Below, in pieces: positions 2,079 to 45,529 of a stretch of DNA of 64,000 nucleotides. This DNA comes from a virus. Taxonomy: Duplodnaviria; Caudoviricetes. The stretch covers positions 1 through 64,000 of the IMG/VR virus record IMGVR_UViG_2786546475_000032; one strand, 5' to 3'. The notes beneath the pieces are model-generated. The model was not told where the DNA came from, made no database searches, and saw only the letters and a list, made by a program, of their open reading frames with translations. Position 1 is the first letter of the stretch. Every line of letters starts with the position of its first letter. Both the position numbers and the translations under genes were made by a program.

Positions 2079-3599
2079 ATGGCTTGTATTAATTGGACTG
2101 AAGAACTCATTGAAGAGGCTATTAAACTATTGCAAAGTGGTGAATATAAAACCGTATCCGAGGTTGCTAAAAATCTGTCGGTGAGGTGTTCGCCTAGTGC
2201 TCTAAGACACGCTTTTGAAAGATTTTCTAGGAAATCACCTTCATATTACCTTTATGTAACCGATGCCGAACCAGATCTAGATAAGACTCATGTTTATGAG
2301 GATAAGGTTATCTATAAAGATGGTGAATACATCATCGACTGTAATGGTCGAACATATTCACTAACTACAGAAGATGCTGAGTATTTGGTATTCTTATACT
2401 CTTCCAAAGTCGGTGAGGGATTAACTGGTGAAGAAACAGCTTCTCAACTCGCGCTCACCGAAGGCTTATACATTCCTGAGAACGTGGTTAGATTCTTTTT
2501 GAGGGATCAGGGTGTAAGCAAAAACAATACTTTCTGCTTGAAGCATCAAGAGGGGATGAATCCACTTGACATCGAGCATGAAATGGTGTATAAAGGGAGG
2601 GTGTTTCGAGAGAAGTTCGCCCGAGATTACAAGGTAGATTTGGCGCAAGCTGAATTGAAATATCTTCGGAAGAAATTCAACGGTTTAACGAGTTTGTTAA
2701 CACAACTCGAAGATACCTTAGAAATCCCTGTTGAAGAAGATTTTCCAGCGGCACCTACTGACGTAAAGAGTGATAAGGTCAGGATCATTCCTATTGCAGA
2801 TTTTCACGCTGGTGTTAAAATTGATCCTTCCTCGGTGAACTTTTGGAACGACTACAATAAGGAAGTCCTCAAGATGAGGATTTCAAAAATCTGTTCTATT
2901 ATTGAAGAGGCTGACTATGAAGATGTAACAAGGATTCATGTAGCGTTTTTGGGTGACTTGTTCGAGGCTCTCCTTGGCAATATGAGAGCGGGGCAGTATT
3001 TAACAATGGATGCTTTCGGAGTAGAGCAATACCTCTTGGTAAGAGATTCGATGTGTCAAATTCTTAAATCTGTAAGGAGGGTTCAAGTACGAAATAACAT
3101 TCCTACAGTAACTTGTATTGGTCAAGGTGGGAATCACGATCGTCTTCTTCAAGAGAAGAGCTACAATTCTGAAGATATTGTTAATTTCATGTTGATGGAT
3201 CGTGTCGCAGCAGAGTTTAAAACCTGTGATAACTTCCATATCGGTGCTGGAGGTGTCGTACACGGTATTAACTTCGCGACGGGTATGTCATTACTTTCAA
3301 GACACGGGCATAAGTCTGGTTTGAAGTCAAATGGTGAGGTAGATAGCTTTATTAACCTGTGGAAGCCAAAGGATCAATACTTTACACCTAACCGTACCCT
3401 TGTTGTAAAAGGACACCTTCACAACTTTAATATGAAGACTGGTCCTAATTGGAGGGTTATTACAGTACCTTCGATCATCGGTGATACTGAATTTGGTACA
3501 CAAAAACTGAATAAGGGTGCTCCACCCGAGTTTATCATGATCGATTCTGATACAAATGGTGAAAAAATTGTTGGTCCATTCTCGCTCAATATTAAATAA
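2079..3599 (+). CDS. Calcineurin-like metallophosphoesterase with N-terminal HTH-like region
   Basis: Motifs ADFH, GDLFE, GNHD, HGH and GHLH; start moved to ATG 2079 behind GGAG RBS. Confidence 0.8.
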   Translation: MACINWTEELIEEAIKLLQSGEYKTVSEVAKNLSVRCSPSALRHAFERFSRKSPSYYLYVTDAEPDLDKTHVYEDKVIYKDGEYIIDCNGRTYSLTTEDAEYLVFLYSSKVGEGLTGEETASQLALTEGLYIPENVVRFFLRDQGVSKNNTFCLKHQEGMNPLDIEHEMVYKGRVFREKFARDYKVDLAQAELKYLRKKFNGLTSLLTQLEDTLEIPVEEDFPAAPTDVKSDKVRIIPIADFHAGVKIDPSSVNFWNDYNKEVLKMRISKICSIIEEADYEDVTRIHVAFLGDLFEALLGNMRAGQYLTMDAFGVEQYLLVRDSMCQILKSVRRVQVRNNIPTVTCIGQGGNHDRLLQEKSYNSEDIVNFMLMDRVAAEFKTCDNFHIGAGGVVHGINFATGMSLLSRHGHKSGLKSNGEVDSFINLWKPKDQYFTPNRTLVVKGHLHNFNMKTGPNWRVITVPSIIGDTEFGTQKLNKGAPPEFIMIDSDTNGEKIVGPFSLNIK

Positions 3600-4822: not shown

Positions 4823-6324
4823 TTAATATTTTAGTAGATAAAGCTTTAAAGAAGTTTGTAAAACATTTAGCAGCGAGCGCTGCTACAGTTATGGTATTGA
4901 AAGTTGCTGACGTTGCTGGTGATGCTATTAGTGATTATTTATTTCCCCAAGAGCCTCCACCTTTTATTCCTTCACCACCACCACCGGAGGAAACAACTGG
5001 AGTCAAACATGAAGTAAACATCAATATCAATTCAAATAATTGTAAATGTTGTATGGAGGAAGAATGAGTAGAATGGTGACGCTCGATGGTTATGTAAGCA
5101 TCGGTTTGGTAGGTTGTAAAAAGAAAATCGAATACGAAGTAGATTTGGATTGGATTTTTGATGAAGATTACAACCCGACTGTACAAGAGATCGAAGAGGC
5201 GTGTGAAGAAGGTTTTTGGGAAGCTGCTATGGAAGAGATTGAAGTGTGGTTTAAGGTAGAGGGTTATGAAGAACCTTAATTCATTCCTGACCTCACCAGC
5301 TCGGCTGGCAAGGGTTGGTGCGTTTGATGTAGAAACTAAAATCACTATTGTAGATGGTAATGAGGAAGCTTTCTTCGATCCTTCGGAAAGCTTGGTAACT
5401 CATCCCCACTATTTTCAATATATTACTGAAAAAGTAGAAGAAAGAATTGAACAATTAGAAGATATTGATGAAATTTCAAAAGTCGTCACAGAACTTTTCA
5501 GGTATTGTCTAAGAAACGGTGTCTTATTCTTCGCGGATGAGATGGAAAGTTTCGACTTGGATTATGAAGGTGATATTCTTTATGCGTTCGATCAAACATT
5601 AGCAAAGTTAAAAGAGGCACCGAATTAGGAGATAAGATGGAAGCACAAGAATATGTAGAGAGTATCATCAATGGCATTCTAGATGACAGTATGACAATCG
5701 CGCAAGGTAAATCAAACGCTTTCGAGCTATTTTCAGGAAGTGTTATCAATCAAAAACAATTTGATGAAATCATGACTTGTATCCGCGAGGTTCAAACTGT
5801 TCAACAGGATATGGCAAATTCCGAAGATGGTGATGGATATTGGAATTACGACTCATCACCTTATGATTGGGATGAGTTTCGTGAGAACTATTTAGAAGCT
5901 CTTCGAGAGGGTGGTAATCCATACGCCTTCGCAGAATTCTCTTCTGAAGATTATGATGAACGTGACGATGATTATGAAATGTTTTCTATTGGTGAGGTGA
6001 AATACGAAGTTGATACTACTCCCGTGCTTGACTTGAGTGTTAGCGCAACCAATAGACTTCCTCACAATCAGGATTGATATGAGCGAGTGGGATAGTGACA
6101 GCGAAGAATCGCCAGTCTTGAATTTTCAAGAATTTCACAATAATCACCAATACACTCCCGATCTCATCTTTTATGATGATGCTGAGTTTTATCATCTCTT
6201 GGATGATTTACCCAAAGATACTCGGAAGGATTTGAAGAAAAGATTCGTAAGAATCAAATCAACACCTTACCAAGATCTGATCGACGAAAACAATAACAAA
6301 CTTTTAGAGGATAGCACAATTTAA
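4819..6324 (+). CDS. Run of five small acidic hypothetical proteins (4819, 5046, 5266, 5637, 6037)
   Basis: Abutting/overlapping ORFs with RBSs; no recognisable motifs. Confidence 0.6.
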
Positions 6325-6332
6325 AGAGTTAT

Positions 6333-6386
6333 AAGGCCACTATATAAGAATCCTAATAGGGAGTTATGTAGTGGCCTTTCTTTTTA
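6333..6386 (+). terminator. Intrinsic terminator
   Basis: aggccactatataa...ttatgtagtggcct stem followed by a T tract. Confidence 0.7.
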
Positions 6387-37715: not shown

Positions 37716-38285
37716 TTAGCGAAGAAATTTGATAGCTTCCATCATCTTTTGGTAAGTAAATCCACCATCAAAATCGCTTGTTTGTACAAAATTCATAGAC
37801 TCGAATCCCTGGAAAGGAATATCATCTAGAATAACGTACTTGTCTACTGAAAGGTCAAGATGTTCTTCGATCCAGTCAGCAACAAACTTACCACGATCTT
37901 CAGGAGCGGATGTAGGGATAAAGATTCTATCCACAACCTTATTCTTAAAGGGTGGGAAGGCTGATTGAAGAATCTCTTGCATCTCTTCAACACTGCGCCA
38001 TCTTCGCCATGATGAAGAAATAACAATCTCGAAAGAACCTCTCAGTTCCTTATCCAGCACGCGAAGATCCTTATCCATCATGTAAAGATTGAATACATTC
38101 GATGGACTTACAGAACGTTTATCGAACTCGAAACTATCGAACTTCGTATTCTCATCTTCTGGCAAAGCGATCTCACCAACTTCTATTGAACACTCGTTAT
38201 CGTAAATTAGCGACGCTTGAGAGCGCCATGAAACATCATTCATGACGCCATCCATATCTAGGAAAACAATTTTTCTACCTGACAT
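37716..38285 (-). CDS. HAD-family phosphatase (HAD_SAK_2, RNA-repair-associated type)
   Basis: FLDMDGVMN, IVISSSWR, RG..V..W, YVILDD. Confidence 0.82.
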   Translation of the reverse strand: MSGRKIVFLDMDGVMNDVSWRSQASLIYDNECSIEVGEIALPEDENTKFDSFEFDKRSVSPSNVFNLYMMDKDLRVLDKELRGSFEIVISSSWRRWRSVEEMQEILQSAFPPFKNKVVDRIFIPTSAPEDRGKFVADWIEEHLDLSVDKYVILDDIPFQGFESMNFVQTSDFDGGFTYQKMMEAIKFLR

Positions 38286-38835
38286 AATACCTATTACCTG
38301 TTTTACTTTTAAACTTGAATGAAGGGTTAACTACATCATAGATAACCCATTGAATCGTGGAGACCTTGAAGATCTTCTCGATGTCTTTAAACTCCAATCC
38401 TCCAAGACCGCAACCAATCTTTGGCGCGTGGATAATAAGTGGTGAGAAATAAGTCTTGTACTTCTGTTCGAGGTTTGTCACACACTCTTCTATCCAATCT
38501 CGTTTAGCGCCACCTAGTGAACCATAGTGACGTTGTGTGAAGAGGTTATGAACGATCAAGCCGTATTCATCATTGTTCACATCAGGCTTTACAATCTCGC
38601 TCGAAGTAATCAAACCCGGCTCAGGCCGATCCAGTTTGCAAAGCTCACGATACTCATCATAAACAACTGGAAACTTATCACGAACCTGTTTCGCAAACCC
38701 TTTACCCATAACACCCTGACAGTTTACGCCATGAGCGATATGAATATGTTGTGAAAGTTTCCATTCAGGATCAAGCTCACGTTGTTTATCCCACATAAGC
38801 TCGAAAAGATTCCCTCTAACCATTTGTAGACTCAT
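38275..38835 (-). CDS. Macrodomain protein (Poa1p-like ADP-ribose hydrolase)
   Basis: GNLF, HGVNCQGVMGKGFA, NLFTQ, PKIGCGLGGL. Confidence 0.88.
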   Translation of the reverse strand: MSLQMVRGNLFELMWDKQRELDPEWKLSQHIHIAHGVNCQGVMGKGFAKQVRDKFPVVYDEYRELCKLDRPEPGLITSSEIVKPDVNNDEYGLIVHNLFTQRHYGSLGGAKRDWIEECVTNLEQKYKTYFSPLIIHAPKIGCGLGGLEFKDIEKIFKVSTIQWVIYDVVNPSFKFKSKTGNRYYVR

Positions 38836-39731
38836 TAAGAGACTCCCAATTTGTTTTAATTTTGGCCAGCTTTTGTTTAAATTCGTCAGTCATCTCGGAG
38901 ATTTGAACAACGAGATTCACGACTGGCAAACCATATCGCTCATAATGAACAAGCGTTGATTGCCAAAGCACCCAAAGATGATAGTCACGGTGTGTTTTCA
39001 GAGTGTCCAAGTTATTCTTATGTTTACGAAACTGTTCTTGATACTCTCCATAATCAAATCCAAAATGGTTCGCGAGGAATACCGAAATCTTTACAAGATC
39101 CTCATCTGCAAAACCAGTTAATGAAACTGCTGAAGAATAGTAATCCAACGCGATGTTATAACCTTCACTTTGAAAATGATAAGTTATTGATTGAATATCT
39201 TCTTGTAAAAGATGTAGGTAGTAGTATTCCTTGAGGTAATAATCTACCTCATCTTTTGTAACGACTTGAAAATCATCTGGTATCGGGCGACCAACAACAT
39301 CATACACCGGATCAACCATTAGAGCGCTGGTGTATCTTTTGATGATCTCATCAAACTCATTCGTCTTTTTAATAGACGCTTCAGCGTCAGCTTTAGCCCT
39401 ATCCCTGATAGTCTTTAGCAGACCTTGTGCGAAAGCATTTCCATCCATTTTATCTCCTCTTATTTTTATGATTCCTATAAAGGACCAAACAGTAAGTGTG
39501 AAAAGTATCAATAGCATTCACAACAAACACCATCATACAAACAACTTCCAAAGAAACGAAGTTGCAAATCAAAAGCGGCATTGCTAACAAAAAGATTCCA
39601 ATAGTAACAATAAGAATCTCGTGTACGATACCACGTCGTCCATTTTGGATGTAGTTTAAGAAAGCTAACATATCAAACCTCTTTGTTTGTTAGTGAATAA
39701 CATCATGTTCCATATTTCAGAATATGGAACA

Positions 39732-39882
39732 TTGCTCGGGTAGGATTTGAACCTACATTAAGTCAAGCGAATTAATATTGTTGGAAGATGTAGAAAACAA
39801 CGATATTAGATCCGGTTAAAATAACCGCATATTCTTTATCCATAGAAGAACTATGATAGCAAAATAAAGATGTTCCCGAGCA
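39732..39882 (-). ncRNA. 151-nt elongated tRNA-like RNA (acceptor stem + T-arm, three internal hairpins, no canonical anticodon arm)
   Basis: TGCTCGG/CCGAGCA 7-bp stem and GTAGG-TTCAAAT-CCTAC; starts 2 nt after tRNA-Leu. Confidence 0.65.
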
Positions 39883-39922
39883 ATAGCCTAGATGGGACTC
39901 GAACCCATACTGAGTAGATTTT

Positions 39923-40626
39923 CTTACCACTATAACTTTCGTTACCGCTATATGCGTTTGTGGTCTGGACTATATCATCACCCTCGACTATACGTTAGGG
40001 TGCCGGAAGCTCTAGCCTGTATTCAGGTAGTCTCTACACCTTCCCCATCCTTGGGGCTTGGATCGGGATCGCCATCGTCTTTAACCGTTAAGGTTTCCCC
40101 GAATTCATCCGGTTCAATATTGAAGTTTCCCTCAATACGCTCAATTTTGAGAGTTGTGTAATCACGCTCGAAAATTTCTTTAGCCGGAGGCAACCTCTCC
40201 ATACCGTTCTGAACTTTAGCACCGTAAAGACCTGCGCACTTTCGTGAACAAAACGGGCCAGCCTTATCTTGGGTTAAGTTCTTACTAAATGTGCGAAGTC
40301 TATCTCCCTCCAAAGAAAAAGAGGTTGAACACATAGGGCATTCAAACTCAACAGGTTTCAACCTTTTCACATCTTCTCTCGAATGTTGTGAACGATCCAT
40401 AACTCGTAAATTTGAAATTGCATTATTCGTGAAGTCACAATCTATATGATCCACAGTTTCATCGTCTGTCAGGAATCTCCTAAGATGATTCTCCATCAGA
40501 TATTTGGGATACGAAACTGTTTTTCTTTTACCAGTTTCTTTATGGACTAAACAAACATGTTTACGACCATCTTTCCTAGTGTAAGGACCATATAATTTGT
40601 AATCTTCATACATAACTCTCTCCTAA
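39923..40626 (-). mobile_element. Group I intron (IC3-like) in the tRNA-Leu(UAA) anticodon
   Basis: 5' exon ends in U and intron ends in G; P GAATTCGGGGAA, Q GATCCCGATCCAAGC, R GTAGAGACTAC, S GATGATATAGTCC; AATTGAG P1 strand as in canonical Leu(UAA) introns. Confidence 0.88.
40023..40613 (-). CDS. Intron-encoded HNH homing endonuclease with C-terminal Zn finger
   Basis: TVDHIDCDFTNNAISNL HNH motif; CPMC...FCSRKC; AGGAG RBS inside the intron. Confidence 0.88.
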   Translation of the reverse strand: MYEDYKLYGPYTRKDGRKHVCLVHKETGKRKTVSYPKYLMENHLRRFLTDDETVDHIDCDFTNNAISNLRVMDRSQHSREDVKRLKPVEFECPMCSTSFSLEGDRLRTFSKNLTQDKAGPFCSRKCAGLYGAKVQNGMERLPPAKEIFERDYTTLKIERIEGNFNIEPDEFGETLTVKDDGDPDPSPKDGEGVETT

Positions 40627-40697
40627 AAGTCTACTGCCTCTGCCGTTGGGCTACTAGGCCAAAGAACAGTTTTAAATCATGTTCAGGATTGTTTTGG

Positions 40698-42636: not shown

Positions 42637-42668
42637 TAGCAATCCAGGGAATCGAACCCTGAATCACT
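42637..42668 (-). ncRNA. tRNA minihelix (12-bp stem + T-loop)
   Basis: AGTGATTCAGGG-TTCGATT-CCCTGGATTGCT-A. Confidence 0.7.
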
Positions 42669-42845: not shown

Positions 42846-44078
42846 TCATACCACCTCTTCCATAAACTTGAAGAATCCATCGTCGTTAGCTAGCATGTAA
42901 GCATCGGAGATAGGTTCGACAAACTCTTTAGTCTTGAGATAGCTGGTGATATGACACGTACAAATACGCTTATCACCTTTCTTCTTATTGACCAAATCAT
43001 GACGAACCATATCTTCAGCGTCAGTAACCAACATCAAATCAGCATCGCTTTTACTAACCTCGATGTTTTCGAGGGTATATATCAACGCTGTTTCAAGATG
43101 TGTGCCACCACCAGCGGTCAGCTTCAACAACTTATTCATCAATTGAGGGAAAGAATCTTTGTTCGTCCCGAATAATCTAGTGACTGAAGAGAAGACAAAG
43201 AGATTAAACCCTCTATTATCGTTAGAGAGAGACTTCATCATAGCCAGGGTTGCACCGATAGCTACACAAAACCTCTTGTGCTGTTTGTTGTTAAATGACA
43301 TGTAAGCATCCATCGACCCAGACATATCCAGAAGAATATCGACGGAACCTTTACCAACAGGTTGCACACGCTCACGCTTGTATTGTGTGATTTGTTTACT
43401 GGCTAACCTGTAATAGAAGAGATCTTCCATTTCAGGAACGGCCATATTCACAACCTCGCCAAAAGTCATACTCTTCAAATCATTACCAAACGTTATCTCA
43501 GAACGGTTAGTAGGATCTGGAAGGACTTGGCTACGTTTGATAGCGTTGATGTGTGCGTAAAGAGCGCCGAAACAATCCATAATAGATTTAACATCTGGAC
43601 TATCCATCTTACGCATCAACTCTCGACGCGCTTCAAAATCCTCATCGCTAAAGTTTTGAGCAGGATCGTTTTCGGCATACTTTCCTGCTGCGGTTGTCAT
43701 GAGCAAGTCATCCACATTGTCTTGTTTAGACTTGAGATTCTCCTCATCGGCCTTGTATGAATCCTCCTCATACAATGCTTGGATAACCTGTTTTGCCTTG
43801 TAGTCATCACCGCTATCAAAAGAATCATCGGTATCAACATCCTTTTTATCAGCGTGATTGATCATCATATCAGCCTGTTCAATACACTTGATGATGTTAT
43901 TCGAGATAGCATCACGAGTCATTTGAACGCTGGAGATTTCATCAATTGTTTCTGTGAAGTCATTCACTTTCTCACCAGTGTAGAAGTAGTGAACAACAGG
44001 CTTCAACTTATCAGGAGATGATTTGGTATCACACTTATCAATGTAATAATCATAAATCATCTCTTGGTATTTATTCAT
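42846..44078 (-). CDS. von Willebrand factor A domain protein (ViaA/CoxE-like)
   Basis: MIDAS motif LLDMSGSM, GGGT, LVTDA. Confidence 0.85.
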   Translation of the reverse strand: MNKYQEMIYDYYIDKCDTKSSPDKLKPVVHYFYTGEKVNDFTETIDEISSVQMTRDAISNNIIKCIEQADMMINHADKKDVDTDDSFDSGDDYKAKQVIQALYEEDSYKADEENLKSKQDNVDDLLMTTAAGKYAENDPAQNFSDEDFEARRELMRKMDSPDVKSIMDCFGALYAHINAIKRSQVLPDPTNRSEITFGNDLKSMTFGEVVNMAVPEMEDLFYYRLASKQITQYKRERVQPVGKGSVDILLDMSGSMDAYMSFNNKQHKRFCVAIGATLAMMKSLSNDNRGFNLFVFSSVTRLFGTNKDSFPQLMNKLLKLTAGGGTHLETALIYTLENIEVSKSDADLMLVTDAEDMVRHDLVNKKKGDKRICTCHITSYLKTKEFVEPISDAYMLANDDGFFKFMEEVV

Positions 44079-44294
44079 CCTCGATTACCTCCAAGTCTTC
44101 ATCTGTTGGATAGATGAAACCGTAGTGGTGTCCATCTTTAGGATTGTATTTAGGATCGTCAGGTACGAAGATCCAGTATCTATTATGCTTTGGATTGCGA
44201 TAGAGTTTACCAACTGTACCAACGGGTGGTGTACCAGCAATCCAAACATCTTCTCTAAGAAGGCGAACCTTGCAACCGTGTTTAAATTCAGGCA

Positions 44295-45431
44295 TTACAT
44301 ACTCCTGTAGCGACGGGAGATTTGACGAAAACCAGCCTTGAATTCCGCCATAATATCTTTCAAGTGATGAGCTTTATCAGGATTGTTTTTAATCTTTGAT
44401 TCAAGCTCATCCTTACGCTCTTTAAGTTGGACAAACAGTTTGCCCAACTCTTTCTTATCATCCATCTTGTTAGCAATAGCGATAAGAGCAACCGACTCGT
44501 TATAGAGTGTTTGGAACCTATCGACTGTAGCGCTAACAAACTCGCTATGAGTAAGCAACTGTGCGATAGCTTCACGATCATCAGGATTATCCCAAAGACA
44601 ATCAGTAAGGTATCGAACATGATCCTTATCCAGTTTGTCAACGCCTTGCATCCACGCGATAGCTTGAAGAAACTTCACACACGCTTTCCAACGCCTATCA
44701 GACACATAGACCTTATCATGTAAGCCAAACTCAGGAACCTTCAACATGGTTCGCAAAAGAGTAAGCGGCTCGATAATATCTGTAATATCCACGTTAGCAG
44801 CTTGTTTACCAGCATCTTCGAGATCTTTGATAGACAGCTTGTCGCCATCATCGAGATCATCAACCTTGCTAGCTGTCAGCATAGCAGCGAATGAAGAATC
44901 AGCCTTCAAAGGTTGAACATGCATTCGACAGATGAAGCGGTCATACAATGCGCCGAGTGATTCATCTTGCGGCAATTCGTTAGAAGCGCCGAACAAGCTA
45001 ATCAATGGAGCTTGAATGTTTTGATTGCCATTCGCAAACTTGCGCTCCTGCATGATGGTGAGGAGCGCGTTCAAGACTTGAGAGTTAGACTTCCAAATCT
45101 CATCGAGAAACGCAACGTGAACATCTGCAAGGAATCCTTCAGTGTTGTACTCCAGTTTATCATCATCGCGCAACGCTTTGATAGAGACTGGACCGAACAC
45201 TTCACTAACATCTGTGTGAGCAGTCATGAGCTTGTCAAAGTATTTCACTGTATCGAAACACTTGAGATACTCAGTGATGAGATAGCTCTTACCAATTCCT
45301 GGCAAACCTAGCATAAAAGCGTGTTGCCCACTAACTGTACAAGCCAGCATGTTGCGAATTTCTGTATCACGTTCCAAGACAATCGTGTTAAGACGATCTT
45401 GAACCTTTGCAAACTTTGCTTGTGTACTCAT
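44295..45431 (-). CDS. MoxR-family AAA+ ATPase (RavA-like)
   Basis: GLPGIGKS, EVFGP, FLDEIWK, NALLT, ASNELP, ALYDRF, SDRRW; start reassigned to ATG 45431. Confidence 0.9.
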   Translation of the reverse strand: MSTQAKFAKVQDRLNTIVLERDTEIRNMLACTVSGQHAFMLGLPGIGKSYLITEYLKCFDTVKYFDKLMTAHTDVSEVFGPVSIKALRDDDKLEYNTEGFLADVHVAFLDEIWKSNSQVLNALLTIMQERKFANGNQNIQAPLISLFGASNELPQDESLGALYDRFICRMHVQPLKADSSFAAMLTASKVDDLDDGDKLSIKDLEDAGKQAANVDITDIIEPLTLLRTMLKVPEFGLHDKVYVSDRRWKACVKFLQAIAWMQGVDKLDKDHVRYLTDCLWDNPDDREAIAQLLTHSEFVSATVDRFQTLYNESVALIAIANKMDDKKELGKLFVQLKERKDELESKIKNNPDKAHHLKDIMAEFKAGFRQISRRYRSM

Positions 45432-45529
45432 TTTATCCTCTCGTGTGATAGATACGGGAACCATCCCGACACTATTAATTTTAATCGCCAAAAGTATGAA
45501 TCAAGGCGATTGAACTAATTTTTCGTACA

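Follow-up and report, generated by a model that had tools for sequence, protein, structure and literature searches.

Directly downstream of the tRNA-Leu gene of a large, uncultured marine phage we have found a 151-nt RNA element (39732-39882, minus strand) framed by the acceptor stem and the T arm of a tRNA. The element is real; it is an orphan that lacks annotation, and it belongs to the same type of tRNA-framed RNA as RNA C of phage T4 (species 1, rnaC), a type that is known but unexplained, and the kinship between the two is one of architecture and not of sequence. The stretch of DNA analysed (the window) corresponds to the initial 64 kb of an IMG/VR virus record of 103 kb, which is estimated to be ca. 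73% complete and has a G+C content of about 38%. Relatives of its terminase, at 40-71% identity, came from metagenomes only (the top one, at 71%, on a 96-kb Logan contig), and no cultured relative of the phage was found. A long leftward operon, with a control region near 52-56 kb at one end, reaches down to about 24 kb. It contains three tRNA genes along with early genes, a MoxR-vWA pair and genes with HAD_SAK_2 and Macro domains. ARAGORN called only tRNA-Met and tRNA-Arg directly, the intron-bearing tRNA-Leu being recognised after splicing in silico.

The two ends of the element, from U1 to the discriminator A, pair as an acceptor stem, with the 5' strand TGCTCGG (39876-39882) matching the 3' strand CCGAGCA (39733-39739) in seven of seven Watson-Crick pairs. 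The discriminator A39732 follows, and CCA is not encoded. The T arm (39740-39756, GTAGG-TTCAAAT-CCTAC) directly precedes the acceptor 3' strand. The 7-bp acceptor stem, the T arm with its TTCRANY loop and the discriminator base are the features of a canonical tRNA that are present. Between the acceptor 5' strand and the T arm there is an insert of 119 nt that folds into three hairpins: H1 (39833-39870), with an outer stem TCTTTAT/ATAAAGA and an inner stem CATAG/CTATG; H2 (39813-39827), CGGTTA-TTT-TAACCG; and H3 (39769-39812), TAATAT...ATATTA, with a 14-nt pyrimidine-rich loop. The acceptor stem, T arm and discriminator on the minus strand, as well as the three hairpins instead of D and anticodon arms, had all been claimed in a preliminary description and were found as described. 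The same description had the element begin 2 nt after the tRNA-Leu; the position directly behind this gene holds, but the gap is a single base, T39883, after the tRNA discriminator A39884, and this base would be U(-1) of the predicted RNase P cut. A 23-codon open reading frame inside the element (element positions 40-111) was discarded as a coding candidate, as no Shine-Dalgarno sequence precedes it and the spurious reading frame around it overlaps the tRNA-Leu.

The gene upstream is a tRNA-Leu(UAA) (39884-40660, minus strand) interrupted by a group I intron, detected by Rfam (RF00028) at 39953-40161 with 64.8 bits. When the 5' exon (40660-40627) and the 3' exon (39922-39884) were joined in silico, the resulting 73-nt RNA was called Leu(taa) by ARAGORN, so that the intron measures 704 nt and sits at U34^A35; the identity assigned earlier to this tRNA was therefore correct. 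An HNH reading frame (HNH_3, 40023-40613) lies within the intron and extends into the ribozyme core. The spliced tRNA has a 3-bp D stem and a variable loop of only 5 nt (TCAGT), whereas bacterial tRNA-Leu typically carries a long variable arm.

On the other side, a hairpin of 12 pairs with a 4-nt loop (39705-39732, minus strand), also anticipated in the preliminary description, begins at the discriminator of the element. It has a poor U tract and could serve either to terminate transcription weakly, as is presumed to happen behind T4 species 1, or to stabilise the 5' end of the downstream mRNA, since 5' stem-loops protect mRNA against RNase E. The next open reading frame (39450-39671, minus strand) codes for 73 aa and is preceded by AAAGAGG. 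Neither a promoter nor a clear terminator that would bound the element as a separate gene was found at the locus. CCA is encoded in none of the three tRNAs of the phage, in the 151-nt element or in the smaller minihelices described below, and hence all of these must depend on 3' trimming and CCA addition by the host.

The fold of the element constrained to the tRNA frame is identical to the unconstrained minimum (-37.6 kcal/mol). Compared with 200 dinucleotide shuffles, the whole element has a z score of -3.96, and the insert alone one of -2.08, only moderately above shuffled stability. With 60 or 150 nt of flanking sequence on each side, the pair probabilities were 0.8-1.0 for the acceptor stem and mostly 0.7-0.99 for H1-H3 (the lowest, a terminal pair, at 0.62), and those of the T arm were 0.15-0.45, low values that may be due in part to the omission of T-loop tertiary contacts from the energy model. 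In the genome as a whole, strict T arms (a 5-bp stem, G53:C61 and a TTCRANY loop) are enriched about 40-fold, with 13 observed versus 0.31 expected from dinucleotide shuffles. The T arm of the element has no nearer acceptor partner (at least six of seven pairs, within 45 nt), and its perfect partner is located 119 nt upstream, starting one base after the discriminator of a verified tRNA.

Several known classes of RNA were considered and rejected. A canonical tRNA (RF00005) would have a D arm and an anticodon arm with a 7-nt loop; both are absent, and there was no ARAGORN call and no RF00005 match at E<=10. More generally, Rfam 15 gave no match to the element either at gathering thresholds or at E<=10; a hit to a known family, which would have spoken against the earlier reading, was not obtained. 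A tmRNA, for which the element had been judged too short, received no call from ARAGORN or Rfam; besides the length of 151 nt, pair 3:70 is C:G, and the G3:U70 mark of alanine and tmRNA identity is therefore absent. As to Y RNA or YrlA, there was no Rfam match, no TROVE (Ro60) gene anywhere in the 103-kb record (the same search was positive in a Deinococcus control) and no GNCGAAG Ro-binding motif in the locus, and the topology is different. An intron-interrupted tRNA does not fit either: RF00028 matches only the intron of the upstream tRNA-Leu, an insert of 119 nt is too short and the putative exon parts lack D and anticodon stems. The absence of intron core motifs noted before held for the insert in Rfam at E<=10, and no copies of the insert, as a repeat or as a mobile element, were found elsewhere in the genome. 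A role in antisense pairing was rejected as well, there being no repeat or complement of more than 12 exact bases elsewhere in the genome.

The searches for homologues of the element were equally negative. No homologue was found by blastn of the element and its flanks against GenBank phages, and exact patterns of 17-24 nt (T arm/acceptor, tRNA-Leu 3' exon, hairpin H2) had no match in IMG/VR. A degenerate T-arm/acceptor pattern retrieved 26 loci from JGI metagenomes, with an oversized homologue in none of those classified, which turned out to be ordinary tRNA-Asn or tRNA-Met genes, tRNA 3' halves and others without a 5' acceptor strand. The five largest IMG/VR records of terminase relatives had no match to the covariance model built for the element (R1), and only one of the five contained tRNAs. 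Two other oddities appeared in the metagenomic material. Eight contigs (L004, L005, L014, L017, L021, L022, L024 and L025) carry only a tRNA-Met-like 3' half (CTCATAA...GGTTCAAATCC..CCCGAGCA) without the 5' half, as would be expected where an integration site has been duplicated. Within a large cluster of tRNAs on a 93-kb metagenome contig, ARAGORN called a 93-nt 'tRNA-???' with a two-base anticodon (cc) (L007:1416-1508, L015:4624-4716 and L016:1072-1164).

For the 233-aa protein encoded downstream of the element there was no homologue in IMG/VR or JGI metagenomes, and in a set of 5.8 billion proteins only its own 90% cluster appeared. Pfam at E<=10 and the ESM Atlas returned nothing usable for this protein or for the neighbouring one of 216 aa, and the Macro-domain neighbour has distant relatives only (43% identity or less). 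Genes with HAD_SAK_2 (the RNA-repair 'Swiss Army Knife' HAD), Macro, vWA and bpMoxR domains interleave with the tRNA genes (37716-38835 and 42846-45491, minus strand), giving this neighbourhood the flavour of an RNA-repair or conflict system. No functional tie between them and the 151-nt RNA was found.

The genome also contains ten minihelices of 40-66 nt made of an acceptor stem and a T arm, located between 42638 and 57352, mostly on the minus strand and in most cases just after genes of the same leftward operon. Their bodies vary in length, up to 35 nt among unambiguous pairings, and the T loop is TTCGATT or TTCAATT in nine of them and TTCGAAT in the tenth. Those at 42638, 45531 and 47953 are each followed by a shared ATGTACGAAAAATTA motif. 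The preliminary description had considered the element a member of this family. The architecture agrees with this view, but the T loop (TTCAAAT) does not, and neither does the search for a paralogue: the sole significant match of covariance model R1 in the genome was the element itself (195 bits), accompanied by one weak match of 15.7 bits built on G-U-rich pairings, and no paralogue of the 151-nt element was found. The element is more than twice as long overall, its insert is more than three times the longest of the family (119 vs 35 nt), and it follows a tRNA whereas the minihelices follow protein genes. A related precedent is provided by the t-elements of plant mitochondria, non-canonical structures that RNase P and RNase Z cleave at their two ends and to which C/A are added (PMC1920247). 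Like the element, t-elements and the phage minihelices have a non-canonical body in addition to their acceptor stem and T arm, lack the anticodon arm and are situated at gene boundaries; they differ in being only 40-75 nt long, with a body that holds at most one small hairpin, compared to 119 nt in three hairpins.

The closest known analogue of the element, not named in the preliminary description and matched in both architecture and position, is T4 RNA C. In the T4 genome (NC_000866) the order is tRNA-Arg, 1 nt, rnaD (119 nt), 6 nt and rnaC (139 nt), adjoining the gene of the homing endonuclease SegB. At the 3' end of rnaC the T arm CCGGG-TTCGAAT-CCCGG precedes the heptamer CGTTTCG. Five of the seven positions of this heptamer pair with CGATTCG, close to the 5' end, and the middle of the molecule forms two long hairpins; rnaD has no such T arm. 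Homologues of rnaC were found in 740 phage records, most of the inspected ones leaving them unannotated, and there is no Rfam family for rnaC. We have aligned the sequences of T4, one Karamvirus and two of Kanagawavirus. Pair 3 of the acceptor-like stem changes from A:U to G:C, and pair 3 of the T stem is G:C, A:U or U:A, while two U-U mismatches in the acceptor stem are conserved throughout the alignment. As a control, sliding the 3' partners abolished all the double changes. These compensatory changes in two pairs across Tequatrovirus, Karamvirus and Kanagawavirus show, at the level of the alignment, that T4 rnaC is framed by a predicted acceptor-like stem and T arm.

The position is similar in two relatives of rnaC. 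They lie 6 and 9 nt after a tRNA, one with a further tRNA 5 nt downstream; the homologue in Enterobacter phage Entb_45 is 6 nt after tRNA-Met and that in Enterobacter phage CW742 is placed between tRNA-Trp and tRNA-Gly, both of them unannotated (L067:151-289, L068:151-289). The Entb_45 homologue has TGCATGC in place of the T loop with the stem kept, and in Kosakonia phage 305 a hypothetical CDS has been annotated over part of the homologue (L069: about 174-322). T4 RNA C is co-transcribed with the tRNAs, and termination is presumed to fall after it (PMC2330249). It has been detected by Northern blot as a stable RNA (PMC9697503), and no role has been assigned to RNAs C and D, although knowledge of both dates back to the 1970s (PMC3014915, PMC9697503).

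The traits shared by RNA C and the element are numerous. Both are found in a tRNA cluster, only a few bases away from the tRNA or tRNA-like gene that precedes them and with a homing-endonuclease gene adjacent; in both, the 5' and 3' ends pair as an acceptor-like stem with a canonical T arm, hairpins replace the D and anticodon arms, a further hairpin follows and there is no Rfam family. The differences lie in the length (139 nt in T4 vs 151 nt here), the number of hairpins in the insert (two vs three) and the acceptor stem, which has two conserved U-U mismatches in RNA C and is perfect, 7/7, in the element. Furthermore, RNA C accumulates during infection, whereas the element is known from its sequence alone. 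Homology between them was detected neither by model R1 applied to the T4 tRNA region nor by the blastn comparison with GenBank phages.

Two other systems deserve comparison. The engineered tRNA scaffold of Ponchon and Dardel (PMC3401473) likewise has a structured cargo RNA framed by parts of a tRNA; such chimeras are recognised by the bacterial tRNA machinery, and in E. coli they undergo processing and gain protection (PMC3401473). The scaffold keeps the D arm and swaps only the anticodon stem-loop, while the element has lost the D arm too. The YrlA and Y RNAs share with the element the association of an ncRNA with a tRNA-like module. [quoted passage not shown] However, YrlA has mimics of the D and T arms, an internal acceptor-like stem, a Ro-binding module and a TROVE neighbour, whereas in the element it is the termini that form the acceptor stem.

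A different oversized tRNA was observed in a distant relative of the phage. IMG/VR record 3300044627_004527 (L065, 176.7 kb), with a terminase 40% identical, has a cluster of 28 tRNAs that includes a 155-nt tRNA-like gene (2830-2985, plus strand) with no ARAGORN or Rfam call. Its acceptor, D and T arms are intact, but an irregular hairpin of about 100 nt takes the place of the anticodon arm; imposing the tRNA structure on the fold costs no energy relative to the minimum (-55.6 kcal/mol). Judging from this modelled fold, the 155-nt RNA looks like a natural tRNA scaffold and would be closer to the engineered design than the 151-nt element. The same cluster contains a 62-nt minihelix-like element (6275-6337) and an odd 76-nt tRNA-like element (4956-5032), both on the plus strand and without an ARAGORN call.

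Taking these observations together, we consider it probable that the element is a tRNA-framed ncRNA gene, co-transcribed with the tRNA-Leu and released by tRNA processing, with the hairpins as cargo, and that it is a counterpart of T4 RNA C. The intron-bearing tRNA-Leu(UAA) and the element would share a transcript, in which RNase P, RNase Z and the CCA-adding enzyme would need to recognise no more than the 12-bp coaxial helix of acceptor stem and T arm, as the precedents of t-elements (PMC1920247), Y RNA (PMC4201824) and tRNA-framed chimeras (PMC3401473) suggest. The host RNase P is predicted to cut between U(-1) and U1, leaving the tRNA-Leu with a 1-nt trailer; a comparable release is known for the dimeric tRNA precursors of T4 (PMC11143913). 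RNase Z or exonucleases would then trim at or after A73 and the CCA-adding enzyme would tail the product, giving an RNA of about 154 nt that the tRNA frame may protect from decay. The 3' cut of the element would also set the 5' end of the downstream mRNA, that of the 73-aa ORF, which would begin with the 12-bp hairpin. As for the cargo, the three hairpins would most likely be a protein-binding platform. Excision and stabilisation by the tRNA-processing machinery, as proposed in the preliminary description, would fit the anatomy of the element and, by analogy, the precedents of T4 RNA C, t-elements and the tRNA scaffold. Since there is no D arm, the elbow used by bacterial RNase P and RNase Z is missing and processing may be inefficient. 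Aminoacylation appears unlikely, given the lack of G3:U70, of G-1 and of a D arm.

The main rival to this reading is that the element acts only in cis, as a punctuation signal comparable to an oversized t-element: the frame would recruit RNase P and RNase Z, the excised piece would be a by-product and the insert would have no function. The t-elements (PMC1920247) are a precedent for such a signal, and the ten or so minihelices of 40-66 nt after genes of the same operon speak for it within this genome; as their inserts vary in length, the length of an insert would be flexible. The location exactly at the junction between tRNA and mRNA, where the hairpin would cap the downstream mRNA, agrees with it too. 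However, cutting does not need an insert of 119 nt with three hairpins, more than threefold the 35 nt of the longest in the family, and T4 RNA C, which has the same build, accumulates as a stable RNA (PMC9697503). We regard a purely cis-acting role as rather unlikely, and the other alternatives as less likely than this one. Among them, a decayed or disrupted tRNA, left without function after an insertion or the decay of an intron had removed its D and anticodon arms, would be in keeping with a tRNA region next to an intron that bears a homing endonuclease, and with an orphan for which no conservation was detected. Nevertheless, decay would have had to spare all seven pairs of the acceptor stem and a perfect T arm without leaving a trace of the D arm or of the 7-nt anticodon loop, and the insert has no match to intron cores, no repeat or mobile-element copy in the genome and is itself well folded. 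This makes decay improbable.

The domains encoded nearby (HAD_SAK_2, Macro, vWA and bpMoxR) and the occurrence of tRNA-mimicking YrlA in phages (PMC4201824) bring to mind a component of a ribonucleoprotein, either Y RNA/YrlA-like or a mini tmRNA, working together with the MoxR, vWA, HAD_SAK_2 and Macro proteins. The lack of any Rfam match (E<=10), ARAGORN tmRNA call, G3:U70, TROVE gene or GNCGAAG motif, and a topology unlike that of YrlA, largely refute a Y RNA- or tmRNA-like particle, and we consider it very improbable. Even less credible is a chance pairing of a T-arm-like hairpin with a distant complementary heptamer. Once a T arm is given, it is not unusual for a 7-bp partner to occur within 60-200 nt, and at least one such match was present in four of 100 shuffled genomes. 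Against this, a shuffled genome has only 0.31 strict T arms to begin with, every pair with the partner is Watson-Crick, a single base separates this partner from the discriminator of a tRNA, and the unit as a whole is the minimum-energy fold (z -3.96).

The co-transcribed and processed ncRNA preferred here would have implications beyond this phage. It is possible, although we propose it tentatively, that unrelated phages (the T4-like coliphages, this marine phage and the distant relative with the 155-nt tRNA) have repeatedly evolved natural tRNA scaffolds, stable cargo RNAs that would act in trans after maturation by the tRNA-processing and CCA machinery of the host, their hairpins binding or sequestering a host or phage factor. 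If true, this would offer a comparative handle on the 50-year-old puzzle of T4 RNA C. The element would also be a natural example of the tRNA-scaffold idea that is used for stabilising recombinant RNA. Since Rfam includes neither of the two RNAs and the homologues of rnaC are mostly unannotated, a descriptor of the class as a whole (a large insert enclosed by an acceptor stem and a T arm, next to tRNAs) could uncover many more and would allow comparative functional work. That a marine phage unrelated to T4, and still uncultured, has an RNA of the same architecture in a position of the same kind, directly behind a tRNA and beside a homing endonuclease, suggests that RNAs framed in this way recur among phages as a device and are no peculiarity of T4.
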